From positions 169,748 through 201,166 of the IMG/VR virus record IMGVR_UViG_3300022696_000071: 31,419 nt of DNA. One strand, written 5' to 3'. Positions 1-29,309 of the stretch are shown in pieces (position 1 is the stretch's first letter; every line of letters starts with the position of its first letter). The notes beneath the pieces were generated by a model that did not search any database, was not told the DNA's origin, and worked only from the letters and a program-made list of their open reading frames with translations. A program made the position numbers and the translations under genes. The DNA is from a virus.

Positions 1-2345
1 TTCGCCTCAACAGTATCTCTTAATGTATGTGAAATTAACAAAACAATATAATCATTAGATAATGTATTCAACATATTTATCACAATGTCAACATTTTTTG
101 GATCTAATGCGTCTAAAATTTCATCCATTATGATTATATTGAAATGTGTATTTGTCATGTGTTCAAGAAGATGTCGTAATGATAATAATGTTATGATATC
201 AATTAATCGACCTTCGCCTCCAGAAAAACAATCCCTTGAATCTGTTAAATGTTCAGTATGAATACAATTAACCGAAAATTTATTTCTCATTTCTCCAGAT
301 TTTAATTGACTTTGGGAACTAAATCTTACTCTTAAATTATCAGTCATTTCAGATAATTCAGACGCACGAGAATTAATGATAGGTATAGATTCATCGAGAA
401 GAACAGCTTTAATTCCAGTAGATGAAAATGCATTTTTCCAGAATTTCAATATTTCTATATCCGTCTTTATCTTATTCAACTCTTGATTGTTAATATCTAT
501 TTTAGTCGATATATTCAATATAGAAGATTGTATATTTTTAACAGATTCATCATATTTTTCTTTATTTAATTTTCTATTTTCATTCATTATTCTGAGTCTG
601 GCTTCATACATTTCGATTTCTTTAACGCATTCATTAAAATTATTTGCTAATTGATTTAATAAATCAAGAGTTGTGGTTAATTCTAAAATTATAGATCCAA
701 CTACTTCAATTCTATCATTTATATCATTAATTTCATCATTATGTCTTTTTGTTTCTCTATCTATCAGATCATTCAATTTATTTTTGTATTTATTTTCTAA
801 TGTTAATTCTATTTTAGTTTTATCATTATTTAAATCAGATAATTTATTATTTAATGCTTCTCTATCTCTCTGATATTCAGTTGTTATATTATCTAATCTA
901 TATATTAGAGAATGTTTAACATTTACTTTCCAATCTTCAAGCAGTTCCATCTTTTCAGATTTTGATTTGTTTATATTATCCATATTTTGAGATTCTTTAT
1001 CTATTTCTTTTCCATAATTTTCAGATGAACTTTCGATATTATCAAGATTTTGTTTCAATCTTTTAAGTTCTGTTTTCATATTATTTACTTCAGATAATAT
1101 TTGAGATTTACTATATTCATCAGATAAATTTTGACCACATGCATAACACGTTGGATCATCTTTATTCAATCCATCAGTCATAGTTTTTAATCTATCATTT
1201 ACGGTTTTCATCGATTCCATTATCTCAACTTTTTTATCTGATAAATTAGATAATTCCATTGAATATGTCTGAAGTCGTTCTCTAACAGGTTCTACTTGTC
1301 TATTAAATTCTTCATCTATATTTGATTTATCAAATAGATATTTAGATTTAGCTTTTTGATTTTCATTTTCGATACCAGATCTATTATTATTAAATGAGAT
1401 ATCAAGATTTGATAATTTATTATTCAATTGATTTATTTTATCAGTTATATCTCTTAATTGTCGATTTAACTCATTATTTTTATCTGATTCTATTTTCTGA
1501 CGTATAAGATTTATATCTTGATTATATTCCCTTTGTTTACTCTCTATTTTGTTTTTAAGAGTTGTATGATCTATTTCATATTGGGTTAACTGTCGTTTTA
1601 TATCTTTAATATCATGAGTTTTTAATTCGGCTTCAAATTTTGATTTTTTATCTAATAATTGTTTTATTTCTTTATTTATATCTTCTACCGATTTGTCATG
1701 ATTATCTTTTTCTGATTGTTCAGATTTACGAATATTTTCTAATTCTGCATTTCTGGTATTTAAATATTTTTCATTAAATTCTATTTCAGATGATATAGTT
1801 GGTATTTTATTCTTACTTAATTCATCTTCTTTATTTTTTATAGATTGTCTATATTCTTCATATGCATCCAAATTTAACATCATATCAAAAATCTTTTTCT
1901 GATTTCCATCTGTTTCTTCAGTAAAAGATTTCTTTATAAACTGAGAGAACATTAAACAGTTTATAAATATATTAAATGGCATTAATATGTCTTCAATAGA
2001 TACATCAACTGGAGTTTTACCATTATCTTTATATATTAAGAATTCATTTTTATAAACTTTATGTTTTCTGTATCGTTCTACTCTATATTCATCGTCATCT
2101 ATACTAAACGTCAATTTAACATATGTATTTTTACCACTTCTTATTCGTATTACATCATCTGCTTTTATATTCTTGGTTGTTTTGCCATATAGTGCATATA
2201 CTATACCATCACAACATAATGTTGTTTTTCCTTGCCCATTATTCCCTTGAACAATAACGAATCTATTCGGTGTAAATTCGAAATCTATATGTTCGAAACA
2301 TTTGAAATTATGCATTTCTATTTTTTTGAATATTACTTGTCTCAT
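1..2345 (-). CDS. Rad50/SbcC-like recombination ATPase (T4 gp46-like); C-terminal end runs off window start (partial)
   Basis: Minus-strand frame starts at ATG 2343-2345 (MRQVIFKKIEMHNFKCF...), with N-terminal Walker A GNNGQGKTT. Long Lys/Glu/Asn-rich coiled-coil carries a zinc-hook-like CYAC. Near window start (C-terminal) are ABC signature FSGGE, Walker B IIIMDE and H-loop ISH. The start overlaps the stop of the SbcD-like gene (TAATG). Confidence 0.85.
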   Translation of the reverse strand, partial: MRQVIFKKIEMHNFKCFEHIDFEFTPNRFVIVQGNNGQGKTTLCCDGIVYALYGKTTKNIKADDVIRIRSGKNTYVKLTFSIDDDEYRVERYRKHKVYKNEFLIYKDNGKTPVDVSIEDILMPFNIFINCLMFSQFIKKSFTEETDGNQKKIFDMMLNLDAYEEYRQSIKNKEDELSKNKIPTISSEIEFNEKYLNTRNAELENIRKSEQSEKDNHDKSVEDINKEIKQLLDKKSKFEAELKTHDIKDIKRQLTQYEIDHTTLKNKIESKQREYNQDINLIRQKIESDKNNELNRQLRDITDKINQLNNKLSNLDISFNNNRSGIENENQKAKSKYLFDKSNIDEEFNRQVEPVRERLQTYSMELSNLSDKKVEIMESMKTVNDRLKTMTDGLNKDDPTCYACGQNLSDEYSKSQILSEVNNMKTELKRLKQNLDNIESSSENYGKEIDKESQNMDNINKSKSEKMELLEDWKVNVKHSLIYRLDNITTEYQRDREALNNKLSDLNNDKTKIELTLENKYKNKLNDLIDRETKRHNDEINDINDRIEVVGSIILELTTTLDLLNQLANNFNECVKEIEMYEARLRIMNENRKLNKEKYDESVKNIQSSILNISTKIDINNQELNKIKTDIEILKFWKNAFSSTGIKAVLLDESIPIINSRASELSEMTDNLRVRFSSQSQLKSGEMRNKFSVNCIHTEHLTDSRDCFSGGEGRLIDIITLLSLRHLLEHMTNTHFNIIIMDEILDALDPKNVDIVINMLNTLSNDYIVLLISHTLRDTVEA

Positions 2346-3388
2346 TATTGATTACCCCCTATAGCTTTTAATCCAACTTTCATGTATTTTTTTCTATCCC
2401 GCTCTGGAACATTTTCTATTTCAAGCCATTTTTTCATTTGATCTTTAATTTGCATATTAGATGTTATTCCACGTATTTCGTATTCTTCTTCATATTCATC
2501 TAATAATACAATATCTTCTTTAGAAGTATCCAATTCTTTTGGAACTTCTTTGAGTTTATTTCTAACGATTACATGATGCCCCTCTTTTTTCCTCTTTTCT
2601 ATATTTTCCAACATTGTCTTAAGATTACTCTTTGATGATTCATCAATTATAAAATTATAATACTTCCTATACCCTTTTGTTTCCACACTTTCTACTGATA
2701 AATCATCTGGATCTATAACGAGAAATCTTTTTGTTTCTCCATGCTCATCACGACGAAGTGGTATAGGGGAACCAACATAATATAATTTAGTAGTATCATT
2801 TTCTATTTTCTGAGGAGTATGATAATGACCAAGTAATACTAATTTAAATTTTGATAAATCGCCCATCGATATATTAGTTTTTAATGATATTCCAGATGCT
2901 AAATGTGCATCTGATAAACCAAAATGAGATATTAATATATCTGCTGGTGATGAATTTTCTATATGATTTATAATATTTTTAGAATGTGGAATATACATTA
3001 TATTATCAGTGAAGAATGGTTCAGTTATAGATGAAACATTTCCGTAACCACTTAACAAATTTATAGAAGATTCATTTTCAACATTCGATCCAATGTCATG
3101 ATTCCCATGAAGTAACACAAAATGTATACTTCTATACTTAAGTAGCACTTTACGTCTAAAATAATCAAAAGCTCTTGTATGAATGGTATTTTTAAGATCA
3201 TTTATATCACCACCTATTACTAACTTTGGAATATCGTTATTTAAAGCATAATTACACATATGATCGATTGTATCAATTGTTTCTATTAATCTAAGTGGTA
3301 TACCATCATCATTACTTTTTTTATCATTCCACATCTTTAAATGGATATCTGCTGTGAAAATGAATTTTTCTCTGGTTGACGAATTCAT
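2345..3388 (-). CDS. Mre11/SbcD-like calcineurin-type phosphoesterase nuclease (T4 gp47-like)
   Basis: 347 aa ORF with Mre11 phosphoesterase motifs: FTADIHLK (motif I), GGDINDL (II), LLHGNHD (III), GHYH. Adjacent and translationally coupled to the Rad50-like gene, as in T4 46/47. Confidence 0.88.
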   Translation of the reverse strand: MNSSTREKFIFTADIHLKMWNDKKSNDDGIPLRLIETIDTIDHMCNYALNNDIPKLVIGGDINDLKNTIHTRAFDYFRRKVLLKYRSIHFVLLHGNHDIGSNVENESSINLLSGYGNVSSITEPFFTDNIMYIPHSKNIINHIENSSPADILISHFGLSDAHLASGISLKTNISMGDLSKFKLVLLGHYHTPQKIENDTTKLYYVGSPIPLRRDEHGETKRFLVIDPDDLSVESVETKGYRKYYNFIIDESSKSNLKTMLENIEKRKKEGHHVIVRNKLKEVPKELDTSKEDIVLLDEYEEEYEIRGITSNMQIKDQMKKWLEIENVPERDRKKYMKVGLKAIGGNQ

Positions 3389-3440
3389 AAGGTATGTCCT
3401 TTTTGATTATTTAAAAAAATTTAAATTAATTAATATTTTT

Positions 3441-3488
3441 GAGTGTTTTGCAAAAGTACGAGATATTCTCCACTCTTGCAAAACGCTC
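3441..3488 (-). promoter_or_regulatory. 13-bp imperfect inverted repeat (GAGTGTTTTGCAA ... TTGCAAAACGCTC) between the 188-aa gene and the sbcD-like gene
   Basis: Read directly in the intergenic sequence. Could be a terminator or attenuator hairpin, or a protein operator, sitting upstream of the gp47-like RBS. Confidence 0.35.
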
Positions 3489-3501
3489 AGTCATATATTT
3501 T

Positions 3502-4068
3502 TTATCGTTTCGATTCAATTATTTCAATGTTTAAATCCCGATATTCTTCATCTGGATTTTTGAAAATAACAATTGGTTTATAATGTGATTTGAATCTTGT
3601 TGCCAGCGAAGCAAGAGTAAGATCGACAGTTAACGATCTATAAAATCTTGCAAATGTATATTTGTGATCTTCTCCTGCTTCATTGTATGATGAAGCAATG
3701 GCATCAAGTTTATCATATATCAGATATGGATCTTTATCCAACTTGATTTTTCTCTTGACCAATTTCGGTTTCCCCGAATTCTTGCGTTCGAAAATAGGAA
3801 CCATTTCTTCCGATGTCTTCTCGCTAAGAGCAGCTTTCATTGCTCTCATAAACGATTTATGTTTTCCTTCTTTTCTCACGAAATGATCTTCGAGAGATGT
3901 AATTGCAATTCCCGAAGATACAATGTTTTCACTTTTATCATACATTACACATATCATGCCGAATGTACCAATGATATCACATCGCATATCATAAAATTTG
4001 ATTTTTTCAACACCAGCCTCATTTCTTAGTTTTCTCTTTTGGGGAGATTCTTTTTCTGAGTGTTCCAT
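3502..4068 (-). CDS. hypothetical protein (188 aa, basic)
   Basis: Intact ORF with AAAGGAG RBS 9 nt upstream of ATG. No recognisable motif, and it does not resemble T4 gp55. Confidence 0.55.
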   Translation of the reverse strand: MEHSEKESPQKRKLRNEAGVEKIKFYDMRCDIIGTFGMICVMYDKSENIVSSGIAITSLEDHFVRKEGKHKSFMRAMKAALSEKTSEEMVPIFERKNSGKPKLVKRKIKLDKDPYLIYDKLDAIASSYNEAGEDHKYTFARFYRSLTVDLTLASLATRFKSHYKPIVIFKNPDEEYRDLNIEIIESKR

Positions 4069-4164
4069 TAAAATACTCCTTTCTAATAAAAATTAATTAA
4101 CATAACAAATCCGTTGCGTAAAAAATTTACACAACAATTACTTATTACTATTTAATATATATGA

Positions 4165-4881
4165 TTAATTTCCGTTACCGTTTTCTTCATATTTTACTCT
4201 TTTATGATGCTCACTCTTCATTTCTTCAATCATGATTTCTCTTAATTTTCTTTGTTGATAAAATGACATAGTTACATAATCGAATTGCTCATCTGCAACT
4301 ATTTCATTAAATATTTCATCAAATAATGTTTCGTGATCATATTCTGAAGAACTAAATTCAGATTTAAATCTTGCTTCTACTGTGTCACAAAGCATTAAAA
4401 GACCAGCTTCGATTGATCGTGGTCTTTGTGTTTTATATCTGTAATCATCTTCATTTTTGCTCTTACTACGATCATAAAATATTTTCAATAATCTCGTCCC
4501 ATGATGTTGACAACACCACTGTATAACATCTCTTGGTATATTATTATCTGGAAGAAGAATTATTGCTGTATCTGATACATGAGTTGTTATTATCTTTTTT
4601 GACATCCACGGATCAAGCGTATCATGGGGATTCTTATCATCTTCTCTTTGATTTTCGCTGAAATATTTTGGATCGACTGTTTTACCAATATCATGATACA
4701 TTCCAGCTATTTCCAATTTGTGAGTATCGAGTTTAAACTCATTACCAAGTGTTATTAATAAAGACGATACTTTTTTACAATGAGCATGAGTTCCTGGTGC
4801 CTTTTCTTTCAATTTTATCATCAATGGATATTGTGGATCTAAAACATCTGTTGATGATGGATTTTCATTTAATTCATTCAT
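4165..4881 (-). CDS. HD-domain metal-dependent phosphohydrolase
   Basis: H..H (THAHCKK) followed about 28 aa later by MYHDIGK (classic HD motif), then further His/Asp (THVSD, LCD). RBS AAAGGAGA. Confidence 0.7.
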   Translation of the reverse strand: MNELNENPSSTDVLDPQYPLMIKLKEKAPGTHAHCKKVSSLLITLGNEFKLDTHKLEIAGMYHDIGKTVDPKYFSENQREDDKNPHDTLDPWMSKKIITTHVSDTAIILLPDNNIPRDVIQWCCQHHGTRLLKIFYDRSKSKNEDDYRYKTQRPRSIEAGLLMLCDTVEARFKSEFSSSEYDHETLFDEIFNEIVADEQFDYVTMSFYQQRKLREIMIEEMKSEHHKRVKYEENGNGN

Positions 4882-15946: not shown

Positions 15947-16507
15947 TTAGTAGTGATTTTTCTTAACTAATTTCCATCGAAATAAATTCTTCACATTGTG
16001 TAATTCTAATACATGATTCGATGATAGAATAGTCAACATTGGATACTGTCGTATCATTTGTAAATCTATTACTTGAACAACTTCAGGCATATTGAAATCT
16101 TCAACTCTTACAGTGAATGGTGTTATTTTTCTTATCCATAAATCTGATAATTGATCACTATTATTTGAATCATCAAGTTGAAAAGGAGGGCAATCTATGA
16201 ATATAAGTAAGTTTTCAGGTTCATTATATTTAAATATAAAAAACTTTGTCATGAATACTGTATATCCATTATTCACATTTTTGAATTTTATACATTTATC
16301 GCAATCATAGAGTTTTGAAAGAAGATTATGTTTTTTGCACGGATTACCTGGAGCACATTGTGTGCATTCTTTATCTCGCCAATCTTCTTCTCTTCTATTT
16401 TCAAATTCGCCCATGTATGTAGCCACAAGCTTCTCATTTAATAGTAATTTTGCAAATGCATTATCAAAAATAACTTTTTCCGATACAAAATCATTTAATA
16501 TTGCCAT
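15947..16507 (-). CDS. hypothetical Cys-rich protein (186 aa; CTQCAPGNPCKKH ... CDKC)
   Basis: Intact ORF with RBS TGAGGAAAA. Putative zinc-binding cluster. Confidence 0.55.
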   Translation of the reverse strand: MAILNDFVSEKVIFDNAFAKLLLNEKLVATYMGEFENRREEDWRDKECTQCAPGNPCKKHNLLSKLYDCDKCIKFKNVNNGYTVFMTKFFIFKYNEPENLLIFIDCPPFQLDDSNNSDQLSDLWIRKITPFTVRVEDFNMPEVVQVIDLQMIRQYPMLTILSSNHVLELHNVKNLFRWKLVKKNHY

Positions 16508-16874: not shown

Positions 16875-16925
16875 GTGATATGATTCTGCTTATTCTATAA
16901 TATATAAATCGCAGAATCATATCAC
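16875..16925 (-). terminator. rho-independent terminator closing the tRNA/ncRNA transcription unit (perfect 15-bp stem GTGATATGATTCTGC/GCAGAATCATATCAC, U-rich tail on minus transcript)
   Basis: Perfect inverted repeat read directly. The minus-strand transcript continues with UUUCAGUUAUUAAUAUUUUUUAAAAUUUUAUUUUUU. Confidence 0.65.
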
Positions 16926-17391
16926 CGTTCCAGCTTACTACTATGCGAAGTCCTTGTCGGGATTTTCCGTCGCATGTTGATCTAAATCTTAATTTAGATC
17001 AACTTAATTATATCTAATCTTATAAATTAGATATAATCAGTACACTAAATACTTACTCTATAGTACTAACTAATAATATAATTTTTTATTAATATGCCAC
17101 CCCAATCCACCCACACCGAATACAATGGACTTATTGATGTGCCAAGTCGGTGAGGTTCCGAGTATTTCACGACACGCTTTATAATACGTAGATATGTATG
17201 AAATCAGATCTATAACTTAGATCCTATATCTATTATTATAAGCGTGTAACACAATAAATCTTGTTACTTCCTCCTACTCTGTACTCTTCCCACCCATCTC
17301 TCCCTAATGAAATTATCTATCATGATCTCTTATTCTTATCATCATGTTACCTCCTTTCTGATTGGTTTTCTGGTTAACTGCATGTTTTTGA

Positions 17392-17481
17392 TGGCGGAAG
17401 AGAGAGGATTCGAACCTCCGGACGCTTTTAAACGTCGATGGTTTTCAAGACCATTGCTTTAAACCACTCAGCCACTCTTCC
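17392..17481 (-). tRNA. tRNA-Ser (anticodon TGA), type II long variable arm, CCA encoded
   Basis: Hand-folded from the reverse complement: acceptor GGAAGAG/CTCTTCC, anticodon stem ATGGT/ACCAT with loop CTTGAAA, long variable arm, T-arm GGAGG-TTCGAAT-CCTCT, discriminator G, then CCA. Confidence 0.85.
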
Positions 17482-17581
17482 ATATGAATTATATATTATA
17501 AAGTAATCGATCTAATTCATAACTCTTCTCCAATTACTTTCTAAATAAAAAATATATTTAATAAAATCAAATAATTAAGAG

Positions 17582-17660
17582 TGGTGGACCCTGCTGGATT
17601 CGAACCAGCGAATGATCGGTTATGAGCCGATGGCCTTACCAGACTTGGCGAAGGGTCCAC
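17582..17660 (-). tRNA. tRNA-Met (anticodon CAT; elongator-type; could alternatively be lysidine-modified tRNA-Ile2), CCA encoded
   Basis: Acceptor GTGGACC/GGTCCAC, anticodon stem ATCGG/CCGAT with loop CTCATAA, T-arm GCTGG-TTCGAAT-CCAGC, discriminator A, then CCA. Confidence 0.85.
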
Positions 17661-19191
17661 ATAATTAAATTACAATATATCTTGAACTTTAATATGCCTA
17701 TGGAATTTTTATACGAGATGTGGAATGGATATTAAAATCCATCAAATATTAATTCCGTCACATAAATGCATCTCTATCGCAAATGAGTCAGAAAGGAGTT
17801 AGAAACCGACTCATTTACTATCCCTTTTATTTTATTTAGAAATAACCATAACCATTAATGCCGCCAATCGGCAGGGATTCTGTGATTATTCCATAGGCAT
17901 ATTAAAATTTAAGATAACTTATACACACTAAACTGATCATGGGCATGTATGTGGGAGGATGGTATGCGCGTACCATATTCCATATACATGCAAGCGAGTC
18001 TCATGATCAGTTTACTACATATAAATTGAATGATTTGAGTTCCCCAACATTGACAGTTTGCGTCACCGATCAAGGTCTAAGAACTTATTAAGAGAACCCA
18101 AATCAAAGCATTTGCATATATATGCATTAATCTGATCACAAGCCATGATTACGATACGAGAAATAGGATTAAATAATATCGTAATCATTAGAGAGAAGAA
18201 GGGGTTGTCTGCCGCAACCGTAAAGCTCTCAAACTTGTGACCAGATTAATACATATATAAAAGACTCAAATGGGGAAATGGGACAGTTTGAGTGGGTATT
18301 CTACTTTTTACCATCTCCCCATCTGAGAAACCAAATCGGGCACCATCGTTTGTGGCGATTATACATCCGGTATGAATAATAACCGCCGATGCCCTTATCT
18401 TATCGTTATATCAAACTCATATGTGGGTATCACCTCCTTCCTTAATATTTATCCGATTACTCACAGGCCAATCAGTCTTACACTCAACGCCCATGACATA
18501 AAAGCGAAGAGTTGCTGATTGACGACGACTAATATATTCTAATATGATTCCATGCAGGGAGACTCGTTGGTTAGACAATACTCCCTGAATATGACCGATG
18601 ACACATTGCAATGATTAACGTAAATTAATCACCGATCTTTGATTATCTGCACTCATCGCAAAATAATCACGACATCTTACTGCCGTTTTGACACGACCAC
18701 CACAGCCGCGTCTCAATGCATCAATCATGCACATTTACGTGTACTATGATTGTATCGGATTAGCTTTAATCATCCACTACATGGACGACATTTTATCCGA
18801 CAAATGCATGGAACCATATTACAATATACTAATTAAGAGTTGAAGATCTCGTTATTGATTGACTGCCACGAAAATCAACAACAAAATCTTCAATCTCTTT
18901 AAATTGATGAATACAACGTTATCATAATATATAAACCTTATAAGATTTATATACGTTGCTTGAGCCATAGCTTCCCCATCAAGCAACAGATAACGTTGTA
19001 CTCATAGTAAACTGATCGAGCATCGGTGTTTGTAAACGGAATGAACACCAATCTCTTTCGAGTGCATGATGTTCTCGTTTTGCTCGATCAGTTTATAATG
19101 AACACAATCTTGACTCGGCACGAATCAACCAAACGGATTAAATATTGATAAATAAAGATTGTGCTCATTATAAAATCAAAGATTAATTGAG
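17661..19191 (-). ncRNA. ORF-free, GC-elevated (about 40%), hairpin-dense 1.5-kb region inside the tRNA operon; candidate stable structured RNA(s), identity unknown
   Basis: No ORF of 65 aa or more on either strand (the two 60-64 aa track ORFs lack RBS, and one overlaps tRNA-Leu). Many perfect 10-15 bp inverted repeats, including two about 85-nt hairpins at 17931-18014 and 19007-19092. Flanked by co-oriented tRNAs. Confidence 0.35.
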
Positions 19192-19276
19192 TACCGGGAG
19201 CGGGACTCGAACCCGCACGGTCGCAATGACCTCGGATTTTAAGTCCGATATGTAGACCTGATTCCATCATCCCGGC
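19192..19276 (-). tRNA. tRNA-Leu (anticodon TAA), type II long variable arm, no encoded CCA
   Basis: Acceptor GCCGGGA/TCCCGGT (G1-U72 wobble), anticodon stem TCGGA/TCCGA with loop CTTAAAA, variable arm GGTCATTGCGACC, T-arm GCGGG-TTCGAGT-CCCGC, discriminator A. Confidence 0.75.
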
Positions 19277-19336
19277 ACAAAAATCTAAATTGATCTTTGA
19301 TTATAATTTAATATATATAGTCAGTTGAATATATAT

Positions 19337-26382: not shown

Positions 26383-26697
26383 TCATTCTCCTTTCCCGAA
26401 TAGCTTCGCTCTTTTCAATCGGTTTTCATCTACTATATTCCAATATCGATCTTTACAATTACCACTTCCTTTATTGGAACAAAACTTATGTTGATATGAT
26501 TTTTTTCTTATTTTGCGATTACATATTGGACAATTCATATAAGATCCGATATCTGCATTAGAATTCTCTTCATATTTTTGTTTAATAATTGAAATAAAAT
26601 CTCCATTATTATTATCAGCTTTAACTTTCCTACTGTAGAATAAATCTCTTACTTCCCAATAATCATCTCTCATCATTCCCAACTTACCATCACCCAT
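26383..26697 (-). CDS. zinc-ribbon protein (CPICNRK ... KFCSNKGSGNC), 104 aa
   Basis: CxxC plus Cx6C Cys arrangement. Confidence 0.55.
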   Translation of the reverse strand: MGDGKLGMMRDDYWEVRDLFYSRKVKADNNNGDFISIIKQKYEENSNADIGSYMNCPICNRKIRKKSYQHKFCSNKGSGNCKDRYWNIVDENRLKRAKLFGKGE

Positions 26698-26961
26698 GAT
26701 ATATTCTCCTTTATAAATATAATAAATTTTACAAAAAATATATAAAGTGGTATTCTTTGCACTTTATATATTTCCATTTGAGATTTGACATGATAGTCCC
26801 AAATGGTTGTCGGATGGGTTTCATCATATTTCCCTTTTCGAGCCAATGTAATAGTGGCTCTATCCGACTGCCAGATCCCGCAGGTTGCGGGGTTTATAGC
26901 GCGTATCTGTACATGGGATTTTCACCCACTCTGGCCCGCGCTTCGGTCTGGATCACGTCTC

Positions 26962-27870
26962 TTAGATCGCCGAGACGACTATCCGCGTAACCAGTTCAAG
27001 ATCCAATTCTGAATCTTTTTTCTGGTTGCTGCCGATAATCGTGCCACTTGGCGGTCCACCCCAACCACTTTCGACTTTACTGATGTCGTCAGCAGCGGGG
27101 GCAACGGAGATTCCCTTGTTACCAGCGACCGTAAACTTTCTAATCCCTTGGAAATTGGGATTAACAGCCACGACCACTTGTGCACCATTTTCATACAGTG
27201 CACCTATGGTTCCAAAGAAACCAGACTCCACCGAAGCTATAATAAGCCCCGACTTTGTCTTACCCCATGTTGCCTTTTCGACGACCTTCTGCACTTGCCG
27301 TTTATTTTCGGCGTGTGCATCGACGAATTGAACATAATGTTCATTTTCATCGACCAACAGTTTCATCGATCCAAAAGGATCAATTCCACTGCGGGAAATA
27401 TCGTCGAGAAACAATATCCCTTCTTCGACCTTTTTCGCGTTATCTTTCGGATTAACCAGAAAGATACCGGAAATTATGTCGGAGAGGAACGGGGGTTCCC
27501 CGATAGAGTATTTTCGGATCTCGTCCGGGCCGAATCTATCCATCGTATCGATGTATTTTACGATACGCTGAGTATCTTCGGTGTAGACACCGACTGGCTT
27601 ATATTTATCATAAGCCTGCCAGGTCGCCGAAACGAGACCTTCAGATCCTTCGCCATGATGATCAAAGTTCATCAGATCGACTCGACCGCTTCCACCGCAT
27701 TCGATACAAACTACGGTTGGGTCGGAAAGATCTTCAGCCTTTGCATCGCCAAAGACGAACTCAATGGCATCGGCCTTAACGTCGAAACGAAAAGCTAAAA
27801 GCCAAAGAGCACCGATAATATCAAGATCGACCTTAAACCCACAGACGATCTTGGAAATATTATCCAACAT
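26962..27870 (-). CDS. hypothetical protein encoded by an anomalously GC-rich (about 50%) gene, 302 aa; function unknown
   Basis: Perfect RBS GGAGGGAGG 6 nt before the ATG at 27870. Gly/Val/Asp/Ala-rich composition typical of a high-GC donor. ILFLDDISRSG is weakly reminiscent of a PRPP-binding loop (speculative). Overlapping long plus-strand ORFs are GC artefacts. Confidence 0.6.
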   Translation of the reverse strand: MLDNISKIVCGFKVDLDIIGALWLLAFRFDVKADAIEFVFGDAKAEDLSDPTVVCIECGGSGRVDLMNFDHHGEGSEGLVSATWQAYDKYKPVGVYTEDTQRIVKYIDTMDRFGPDEIRKYSIGEPPFLSDIISGIFLVNPKDNAKKVEEGILFLDDISRSGIDPFGSMKLLVDENEHYVQFVDAHAENKRQVQKVVEKATWGKTKSGLIIASVESGFFGTIGALYENGAQVVVAVNPNFQGIRKFTVAGNKGISVAPAADDISKVESGWGGPPSGTIIGSNQKKDSELDLELVTRIVVSAI

Positions 27871-28273
27871 AAGAATCCTCCCTCCATTGGATTTACGTGT
27901 CCAATGCTCCGTGCTTATAATATTCAGTCACCAGATTTGTCAGATCTGTTTACCCAGAATATCTTCGCTGGAGTCTCTCACGGCATATTTTCATAAACGT
28001 AATATGCAACGTTATGTTAGAATTTAATATATATAGTGATTTTAATAAAAAACACGTAATGCAAACGTGTTCCCTGGAGCATATTCCAGTATCATTTTTG
28101 TTAGATATATGGCTGACTAAACCATTACTTTTATAGTGGTATTCCACTGATTTTTTCAATGCTTTCTCACATTGCCGAGTTTTTTGCTTCTCGTATAAAG
28201 TTTTTACCAATTCTTACGCGATTGGATGGCTACACTTTATAAGTAACCATTTAGCACGTTTTCAGATTAGAAG

Positions 28274-28822
28274 TTACCCTCTAATCTTACAATATTCCAA
28301 TCCAAGAGATATAGCTTCTTGGACTAAAACTATTGTACCAACCAATATCTCCGAAGAGACATTAGATGGAAAAACTGGATCTCCGGGATGGAAAGTGTAT
28401 ACTACTTCACTTTCCATTTCCTGACCAAGAATCAGCACAGTATAATCGACAGAATATCGATGAAGATCAATATCCTCTCGATCTACAACTGCAGATACTT
28501 GGCCCGTCTCTTTACCATCATCGAGTTCGATGACGGTTAGATTCGGGAGATCATCCAACCTCACGACACCCACTTTACCCCCCAAATTATGGGTGATGAA
28601 TGCCGTACATCCGTCTGCTACAGACGGATGTTTAAATGGTTTCCATTCAGCATTAATGAGATCGTCTTCAGTGACTCTCCCATTAAATGTCGAACCGATA
28701 CCATCCGGTTGGCGAGACTTAAGCGTATTTTGAAAGTAGTCGGTCGGAAATCCTTCGACTTCTTTCGAGAGACGCTTAGTCTCATGGATAGCATTTTCGA
28801 TTCGTTTCTGAATCGTATCCAT
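28274..28822 (-). CDS. hypothetical protein encoded by a second GC-rich (about 50%) gene, 182 aa
   Basis: Intact ORF. Same compositional anomaly as 26962..27870, separated from it by an AT-rich 400-nt spacer. Confidence 0.55.
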   Translation of the reverse strand: MDTIQKRIENAIHETKRLSKEVEGFPTDYFQNTLKSRQPDGIGSTFNGRVTEDDLINAEWKPFKHPSVADGCTAFITHNLGGKVGVVRLDDLPNLTVIELDDGKETGQVSAVVDREDIDLHRYSVDYTVLILGQEMESEVVYTFHPGDPVFPSNVSSEILVGTIVLVQEAISLGLEYCKIRG

Positions 28823-28872
28823 TAATACTTAATATATATATAATATATTCATTATATATATAAAATTTTAAT

Positions 28873-29152: not shown

Positions 29153-29309
29153 ATTTTCCTTTCTTAATATAAGTTTTTTTATTTAAACATAAAAAAATTT
29201 GTGTTGTACAAAAAGGATTAAAAAAGTTAAACAGTATGATAAAAACGATATTTCCTATTTTATAATATATAAGAAATATCGTTATAATACTACTCTCCAC
29301 AAATAAAAA

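Follow-up and report, generated by a model that had tools for sequence, protein, structure and literature searches.

The 31,419-nucleotide stretch of viral DNA analyzed here (positions 169,748 to 201,166 of IMG/VR record IMGVR_UViG_3300022696_000071; hereafter the window) comes from an uncultured, AT-rich jumbo phage and contains three long hairpins, A, B and C, that represent diverged, paralogous copies of a single stem module: a helix of ~22-28 bp built around a nearly invariant 10-bp box (UAAACUGAUC/GAUCAGUUUA) with covarying flanks. We consider it quite possible, although still tentative, that the stems of A, B and C are double-stranded RNA (dsRNA) helices in a minus-strand precursor of transfer RNAs (tRNAs) and non-coding RNAs (ncRNAs) that is cut by an RNase III-type enzyme. 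An earlier note on the window had described A and B as twin hairpins that begin with the same 9-mer and bracket an ncRNA region, and had offered RNase III processing, recombination or packaging, and the ends of a small mobile element as possible explanations.

A family of paralogous stems

Hairpins A and B exist as described, with arms that can be read directly in the sequence and folding far beyond that of shuffled controls. The outer stem of A pairs TAAACTGATCATG (17929-17941) with CATGATCAGTTTA (18002-18014), delimiting a core of 17929-18014, and its interior consists of a 14-bp stem that includes two G·T pairs, followed by ATGGTA-loop-TACCAT. The outer stem of B pairs TAAACTGATCGAGCA (19008-19022) with TGCTCGATCAGTTTA (19081-19095) over 15 bp with no mismatch; the end lies at 19095 rather than at the 19092 first given, a difference of 3 nt. 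Folding energies for the A core were -41.7 kcal/mol on the plus strand (z -7.6) and -31.2 kcal/mol on the minus strand (z -5.3), and those for the B core were -32.9 (z -5.1) and -31.4 kcal/mol (z -5.4), respectively. The comparison with shuffled controls, which the earlier note had named as a possible refutation, returned z-scores of -5.1 to -7.6 over both strands, and none of 200 dinucleotide shuffles folded as well as A or B on either strand. Outward continuation brings both stems to about 26-27 bp. RNase III needs stems of about 20 bp or more, as exemplified by the T7 early sites and the stems of ribosomal RNA (rRNA) operons, and the helices of A (12+14 bp, or 25 bp extended), B (15 bp perfect, or 26 bp extended) and C (28 bp) all provide the length recognized by this enzyme (about two turns, at least 20 bp and near-continuous).

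The 9-mer at the start of both hairpins is indeed identical. Four copies of AAACTGATC occur in the 31.4-kb window against 0.42 expected, all of them confined to the arms of A and B, and the common word in full is the 10-mer TAAACTGATC. Its copies are spaced 66 nt apart within A and 68 nt apart within B, and the two hairpins start 1079 nt from one another. Repeat finding yielded a third relative in the window, hairpin C (18117-18259); no additional copies were found in the window or in public collections. The arms of C, TATATATGCATTAATCTGATCACAAG/CTTGTGACCAGATTAATACATATATA, correspond to the stem of A with a few changes, and C resembles A about as closely as B does, with 15 of 19 arm positions matching in each pair. 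Its closing stem of 26-28 bp is 92% complementary and encloses two sub-hairpins. Among the 12 stem arms of the region, a shared word of at least 10 nt arose in 71 of 2000 shuffled arm sets, and two arm pairs matching at 15/19 positions or better, as A-B and A-C do, arose in none of 1500. In their interiors, A, B and C show no relationship to one another. The picture of twins bracketing an ncRNA region is not right as it stands, with C lying between them and at least nine further modules lying on both sides.

Paralogy extends to the neighboring hairpins, all of which are assigned to the minus strand, as are A, B, C and every other island feature described below. The hairpins on either side of B form a second family and are paralogs of each other: one (18907-19005; z -8.8) has a 17-bp stem that includes ATGAGUACAA/UUGUAUUCAU, with a minus-strand G·U at position 5, and the other (19092-19174; z -7.2) has a 20-bp stem that includes ATGAGCACAA/UUGUGUUCAU. 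The apparent outer extension of the B stem exists because these two neighbors are paralogs, from which its arms are borrowed. Similarly, the hairpin between A and C (18031-18105) is a paralog of the one after C (18265-18327; z -6.2 on the minus strand), and in both of them the block GACAGTTTG and the block GAGAAnCCAAATC recur with their order preserved. This arrangement suggests tandem duplication of a two-hairpin unit, represented once by A with the 18031 hairpin and once by C with the 18265 hairpin. Overall, hairpin families with shared arms and ordered blocks imply that the island grew by duplicating hairpin units.

Strand asymmetry and covariation

Folding of the whole region gave -615.6 kcal/mol on the minus strand versus -493.8 kcal/mol on the plus strand. 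Stronger z-scores on the minus strand, which is the tRNA strand, were found for C, for B, for the 19092 hairpin, for a large multi-branch module (M2, 18530-18831) and for a near-perfect 21-bp hairpin at 18835-18899, and hairpin A was about equal on both strands. Hairpin C folds at -60.2 kcal/mol on the minus strand (z -10.5 to -12.5; plus strand -8.4), and B over its full extent of 18996-19107 (core 19008-19095) has z-scores of -8.5 on the minus and -5.9 on the plus strand. Module M2, which comprises 302 nt closed by a 27-nt inverted repeat, gave -118.7 kcal/mol (z -9.1) on the minus versus -73.2 kcal/mol (z -5.0) on the plus strand. The 18835 hairpin (z -7.8 minus, -4.7 plus) contains three mismatches, each of which is a G·U on the minus strand. 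Hairpin A in its extended form (17916-18027) folds at -42.1 kcal/mol on the minus strand (z -6.4), and its extension, 17916-17926/18017-18027, pairs solely via minus-strand G·U. Since both this extension and the 18835 hairpin need minus-strand G·U, they would contain A·C mismatches as DNA. Among the transition-type mismatches of the outer stems, 17 are G·U on the minus strand versus 3 on the plus strand.

When A, C and B are aligned as minus-strand RNA, they form a 22-bp helix in which 95.5% of cells are paired; both bases have changed in 7 of the pairs, and there is hardly any variation within the 10-bp box. This level of pairing and covariation was reached by none of 500 shuffles and by no slid register. 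The second-family hairpins share ATGAG[C/U]ACAA x UUGU[G/A]UUCAU, in which a G·U is kept in place and the neighboring pair has undergone a compensatory change from U-A to C-G; a conserved G·U beside a compensatory change makes sense only for minus-strand RNA. Overall, these observations favour selection on minus-strand RNA helices. The idea that the stems are long dsRNA in a transcript is favoured by the minus-strand z-scores, the wobble asymmetry and the covariation, but for A itself the strand signal is mixed.

The island, its tRNAs and its surroundings

The hairpins lie in a 2.5-kb island (16.85-19.34 kb) between genes ending at 16507 and 19337. The island is dense in stop codons and holds no long open reading frames (ORFs) or recognizable protein families: the longest ORF has 64 aa, and none of the 10 ORFs in the island gave a PHROG match. 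Its GC content is 0.35-0.38 (0.37 overall, against 0.29), compared with about 0.25-0.29 in the surroundings; in AT-rich genomes, ncRNA genes typically appear as GC-rich, stop-dense gaps. Repeat finding and folding resolved 17660-19305 into ~12 abutting modules, each closed by an inverted repeat of 17-36 nt, with z-scores of -4 to -12 per module. Across the 31-kb window, inverted repeats that reach 20 nt and 85% complementarity cluster at 16875-19305, and just two lie elsewhere. Module M1 (17671-17923), located immediately upstream of tRNA-Met on the minus strand, is a multi-branch structure that spans 253 nt, with a 36-nt inverted repeat as its closing stem (z -8.0). At 16875-16925, a hairpin with 25-nt arms that is followed by a U-rich stretch on the minus strand (z -7.1) is a possible terminator of an island transcript.

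Three minus-strand tRNAs belong to the island: tRNA-Ser(UGA) at 17392-17481, tRNA-Met(CAU) at 17582-17658 and tRNA-Leu(UAA), the last as part of a unit (19171-19305) in which the tRNA (19191-19276) is enclosed by a 21-bp stem, 19171-19191/19285-19305. The arm CTAAATTGATC of this stem matches CTAAACTGATC of hairpin A at 10 of 11 positions, and the flank duplex is modestly significant (z -2.7, p about 0.013). ARAGORN and the Rfam tRNA model place seven tRNAs in the window, none of which overlaps A, B or C. The idea that processing stems surround all tRNAs of the phage was rejected, as the other six in the window are without significant flank complementarity. A 3' CCA is encoded by tRNA-Ser (17392-17394) and tRNA-Met (17582-17584), and the stem-enclosed tRNA-Leu has CUC instead (19188-19191). 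The 3' trailer of tRNA-Met, CTCTTAATTATTTGATTTTAT, resembles that of tRNA-Leu. The window has three copies of the motif CTCTTAATWA and no more, each of them on the minus strand and at a module boundary: after tRNA-Met (17572-17581), within the 18031 hairpin (18085-18094) and at the start of M2 (18830-18839). The tRNA-Leu trailer is similar to it, and the motif could be a processing or boundary signal.

Two paralogous 59-nt minus-strand segments (17318-17376 and 18401-18459; 63% identical) each carry a near-perfect Shine-Dalgarno (SD) sequence (AAAGGAGGU and GGAAGGAGGUG, respectively), after which come ATG and a tiny ORF (MMIRIRDHDR* and MSLI*). The loop of M1 (~17782-17795) exposes CUCCUUUCUG, the exact complement of CAGAAAGGAG at ~17349-17358, and the region carries exposed SD-like and anti-SD-like sequences more generally. 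The 59-nt segments could be micro-ORFs, ribosome-binding decoys or partners in long-range pairing. Outside the island, tRNA-Pro is followed closely on the minus strand by another long hairpin (29233-29294), which has 26-nt arms of 81% complementarity and a 10-nt loop and overlaps a doubtful 77-aa ORF. A second GC-rich patch (26500-28850; GC 0.36-0.46 in a 0.25-0.29 genome) has strong local folding z-scores and contains an ORF (26962-27870, 302 aa) that looks like a real protein without a Pfam or PHROG match and may have been acquired horizontally.

Every long ORF of the window is on the minus strand; among their products are topoisomerase II subunits, a helicase, an SbcD-like nuclease, a QueD-like enzyme and an HD protein. 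An identical topoisomerase is on record from a 201-kb JGI contig. The nearest relatives, with topoisomerase II at most 60% identical, are on contigs of 190-335 kb, and the phage has no close cultured relative. Two related jumbo-phage loci encode RNA ligase and RtcB upstream of the topoisomerase genes (1-676; 1-792, 2210-4342), which suggests that the clade invests in RNA and tRNA repair.

Searches for families and homologues returned little apart from tRNAs. Rfam models at gathering and at permissive thresholds matched only the tRNAs, leaving Y RNA, 6S, ribozymes, introns, GOLLD and ROOL unmatched; the best non-tRNA matches were to microRNA (miRNA)-precursor models at 20-24 bits, compared with thresholds of 90-119. 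A BLAST search with the island in 50,697 GenBank records of phages likewise returned only tRNAs, and megablast of 24 kb of the window gave no match. Comparison of the intervening region with related genomes, as had been suggested for the interval between A and B, found the island absent from ~90 related topoisomerase loci (80 from IMG/VR, with others from ENA, JGI and Logan): these contained no ORF-free gap of more than 830 nt and no comparable inverted repeats, and nhmmer with 12 modules found nothing. Scanning IMG/VR, JGI metagenomes and GTDB genomes for exact copies of the box turned up chance coding matches, unrelated hairpins with a mid-stem box and unrelated Anaerolineae repeats, none of them A/B-like.

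The Anaerolineae repeat is a palindromic, multi-copy, intergenic element of 92-95 nt, (C)TAAACTGATCGCArrGTG...TGCGATCAGTTTA(G), found in both orientations with differing flanks in high-GC hosts, at six loci in one metagenome-assembled genome (MAG), at one further locus and also on six JGI contigs. It gave no Rfam match and resembles miniature inverted-repeat transposable elements (MITEs) or repetitive extragenic palindromes (REPs); its 11-nt likeness to B is best seen as coincidence. Three low-GC marine JGI contigs (~1302-1383, 854-935 and 107-188) each carry, apparently between genes, a hairpin of 82 nt whose 22-bp stem includes TAAACTGATCTCAGATCCATGC....

Several known identities for the hairpins were also considered and rejected. 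Integron attC sites have RYYYAAC / GTTRRRY core sites, an unpaired central spacer, extrahelical bases, and a nearby integrase and ORF cassettes; here ACTAAAC and AGTAAAC are off consensus, the stems are fully paired over 12-15 bp, the 1-kb interval contains no long ORF and the window no integrase. Intrinsic terminators combine a short GC-rich stem with a U tract; the one element that a scan for them flagged was the 9-bp hairpin inside B, read on the plus strand and with a poor tail, and A and B are without U tracts. Neither ARAGORN nor Rfam reported a cloverleaf over A, B or C that would indicate a tRNA-like gene, Rfam gave no Y RNA match, and a TIGR array was dropped for want of periodicity. 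A 9-nt identity between hairpin A and the 5' end of 16S rRNA (TGATCATGG) was judged to be chance.

Possible processing stems and rival readings

We propose that minus-strand transcription of the island joins tRNA-Leu, tRNA-Met and tRNA-Ser in one precursor of ~12 stem-closed RNA modules. Its putative ends are a stretch with TATAAT, upstream of tRNA-Leu, and the hairpin with its U-rich tail at 16925-16870. The long stems would be dsRNA, and a dsRNA-specific endonuclease, most simply host RNase III, would cut inside them, separating the tRNAs and the individual structured RNAs; leftover stem stubs would then shield the RNA ends against exonucleases, and the stems may also serve chiefly as such end-protecting structures. 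Covarying pairs on either side of a conserved box suggest sequence-specific recognition. Transcription as a single unit, RNase III cleavage and a downstream function of the released RNAs are steps that we infer. Precedents are the T7 and SP82 phage sites and the stems of rRNA operons, and two articles bear on RNase III stems (PMC3867540, PMC6582327). A bolder extension, which we regard as improbable, makes the island an array of phage hairpin pre-RNAs, by analogy a counterpart of herpesvirus tRNA-linked hairpin clusters. The box would then direct a dsRNA-binding nuclease or another protein, and the small duplex or hairpin RNAs so released would have targets in trans, namely host transcripts, ribosomes or systems of RNA-sensing defence.

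Several points weigh against processing by RNase III. The inner stem of A has two plus-strand G·U pairs, and A folds slightly better on the plus strand. The covariation covers only three paralogs (and two in the second family), which were picked because they are hairpins and for which no homologue was found. The wobble asymmetry could stem from strand-biased C-to-T mutation by deamination, and after correction for base composition it reaches only about p 0.05, by our own estimate from counts and skews. Complementary flanks occur at tRNA-Leu alone and not at the other six tRNAs, and no RNase III gene is present among the ORFs of the window. Both the transcript and its cleavage are predictions from sequence, and near-perfect stems of 20-36 bp are also typical of decaying palindromic selfish elements.

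The last of these considerations leads to an unlikely but credible alternative, in which the hairpins are selfish palindromic DNA elements, MITE-like or similar to the hairpin repeats of AT-rich organelles, that were duplicated in a permissive gap and have no phage function. Families with common arms and unrelated interiors, near-perfect stems that are GC-richer than the genome, and an island missing from the ~90 related loci would all fit such elements. The flanks of A, B and C, however, show no target-site duplications, their ends are not discrete, the box lies mid-stem and the outward extensions differ. No copies occur elsewhere in the 31 kb, no transposase is found among ~40 window ORFs, and the minus-strand bias and the conserved G·U with its compensatory change would be unexpected for DNA palindromes. 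The Anaerolineae MAGs do show that a real multi-copy palindromic element can have the same terminal 10-mer, but that element has nothing in common with B beyond 11 nt. We consider it highly improbable that A and B are instead the terminal inverted repeats of one 1.17-kb non-autonomous element (17929-19095), as the earlier note had allowed. The left end, TAAACTGATC, and the right end, GATCAGTTTA, are inverted copies, but both orientations are carried by each hairpin itself, which makes this relationship a by-product. The flanks are without a repeat (…ACACAC|TAAAC versus GTTTA|TAATGA), the interval itself contains a third copy, hairpins of the same sort go on past both ends, and the window ORFs include neither transposase nor integrase; neither an empty nor a filled site turned up elsewhere. 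A and B should not be annotated as mobile-element ends.

Quite unlikely, in our judgment, is a reading of the island as the source of a single very large ornate RNA, or of a few, of the GOLLD or ROOL kind, in which the stems would be architectural rather than cleavage sites. Known ornate RNAs have short helices, pseudoknots and multi-way junctions, whereas this region consists of independent hairpins with long, near-perfect closing stems, in modules that are paralogous duplicates, and with E allowed up to 10 there is still no match to any Rfam model, those of GOLLD and ROOL among them. The 1.5 kb of contiguous structure between same-strand tRNAs does speak for such an RNA, as does the frequent location of GOLLD and ROOL near phage tRNA islands (PMC12286853). 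There is also a slim chance that the hairpins act as DNA, through cruciforms or single-strand hairpins recognized via the TAAACTGATC box, in replication initiation, packaging, recombination or a pause in injection. A conserved 10-bp box within variable stems does look like a protein recognition site, and phage T5 has a non-coding injection-stop region rich in repeats and palindromes. Yet cumulative GC skew passes straight through the region, all genes have one orientation, and several stems (the A extension and the 18835 hairpin) pair only with minus-strand G·U; GC enrichment and co-orientation with the tRNAs point to RNA. For the recombination or packaging site offered at the outset, we found nothing in support.

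The hairpins can be compared with several known systems. In phage T7 (R0.3-R1.3) and Bacillus phage SP82, RNase III processing hairpins lie between early genes. Cleavage of rRNA stems by RNase III is described in PMC6582327. As in these phages and in the 16S and 23S rRNA stems, the island has stems of at least 20 bp in a presumed polycistronic transcript, with sequence shared among sites, and like the rRNA stems some of them enclose a stable RNA, here tRNA-Leu, M1 and M2. The island stems differ from the T7 and SP82 sites in lying end to end between tRNA and ncRNA modules instead of between protein genes, and from the T7 sites, which have internal loops, in being longer and more perfect.

Correia elements of Neisseria and enterobacterial ERIC elements are MITEs whose transcribed hairpins are cut by ribonucleases, and they too are palindromic units of 80-150 nt with ~25-bp arms. 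In contrast to those multi-copy elements with conserved interiors, defined ends and TA duplications, the island has three copies in one place, with unrelated interiors and ends that are not discrete. The tRNA-miRNA-encoded RNAs (TMERs) of murine gammaherpesvirus 68 are tRNA-linked pre-miRNA hairpins produced by RNA polymerase III and processed by tRNase Z and Dicer. Both cases have a viral tRNA or tRNA-like gene directly followed by stable stem-loops in one precursor, as we propose for the island; TMERs are eukaryotic, however, and the analogy is functional only. GOLLD and ROOL are RNAs of phages and prophages that are often near tRNA islands, with tRNAs sometimes inside GOLLD (PMC12286853). 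The island shares with them a large amount of structured non-coding RNA beside or among phage tRNA genes, but it consists of modular hairpins, in contrast to their pseudoknotted multi-junction folds, and lacks a covariance-model match.

In the collections searched, the sequence families of the island appear to be new, with no Rfam family and no homologues, and the kind of element is plausibly a familiar one, namely the processing or stability stems of a phage tRNA/ncRNA transcript. If the hairpins were selfish palindromes, the island would show their confinement to the only non-coding refuge of a dense phage genome. If they are processing stems, a jumbo phage would spend ~1% of its genome on duplicated long-stem RNAs co-transcribed with tRNAs. 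These RNAs would form a new class beside GOLLD and ROOL among the poorly understood RNAs of phage tRNA islands, and their stems would provide a compact natural set of dsRNA processing signals with a defined conserved box.

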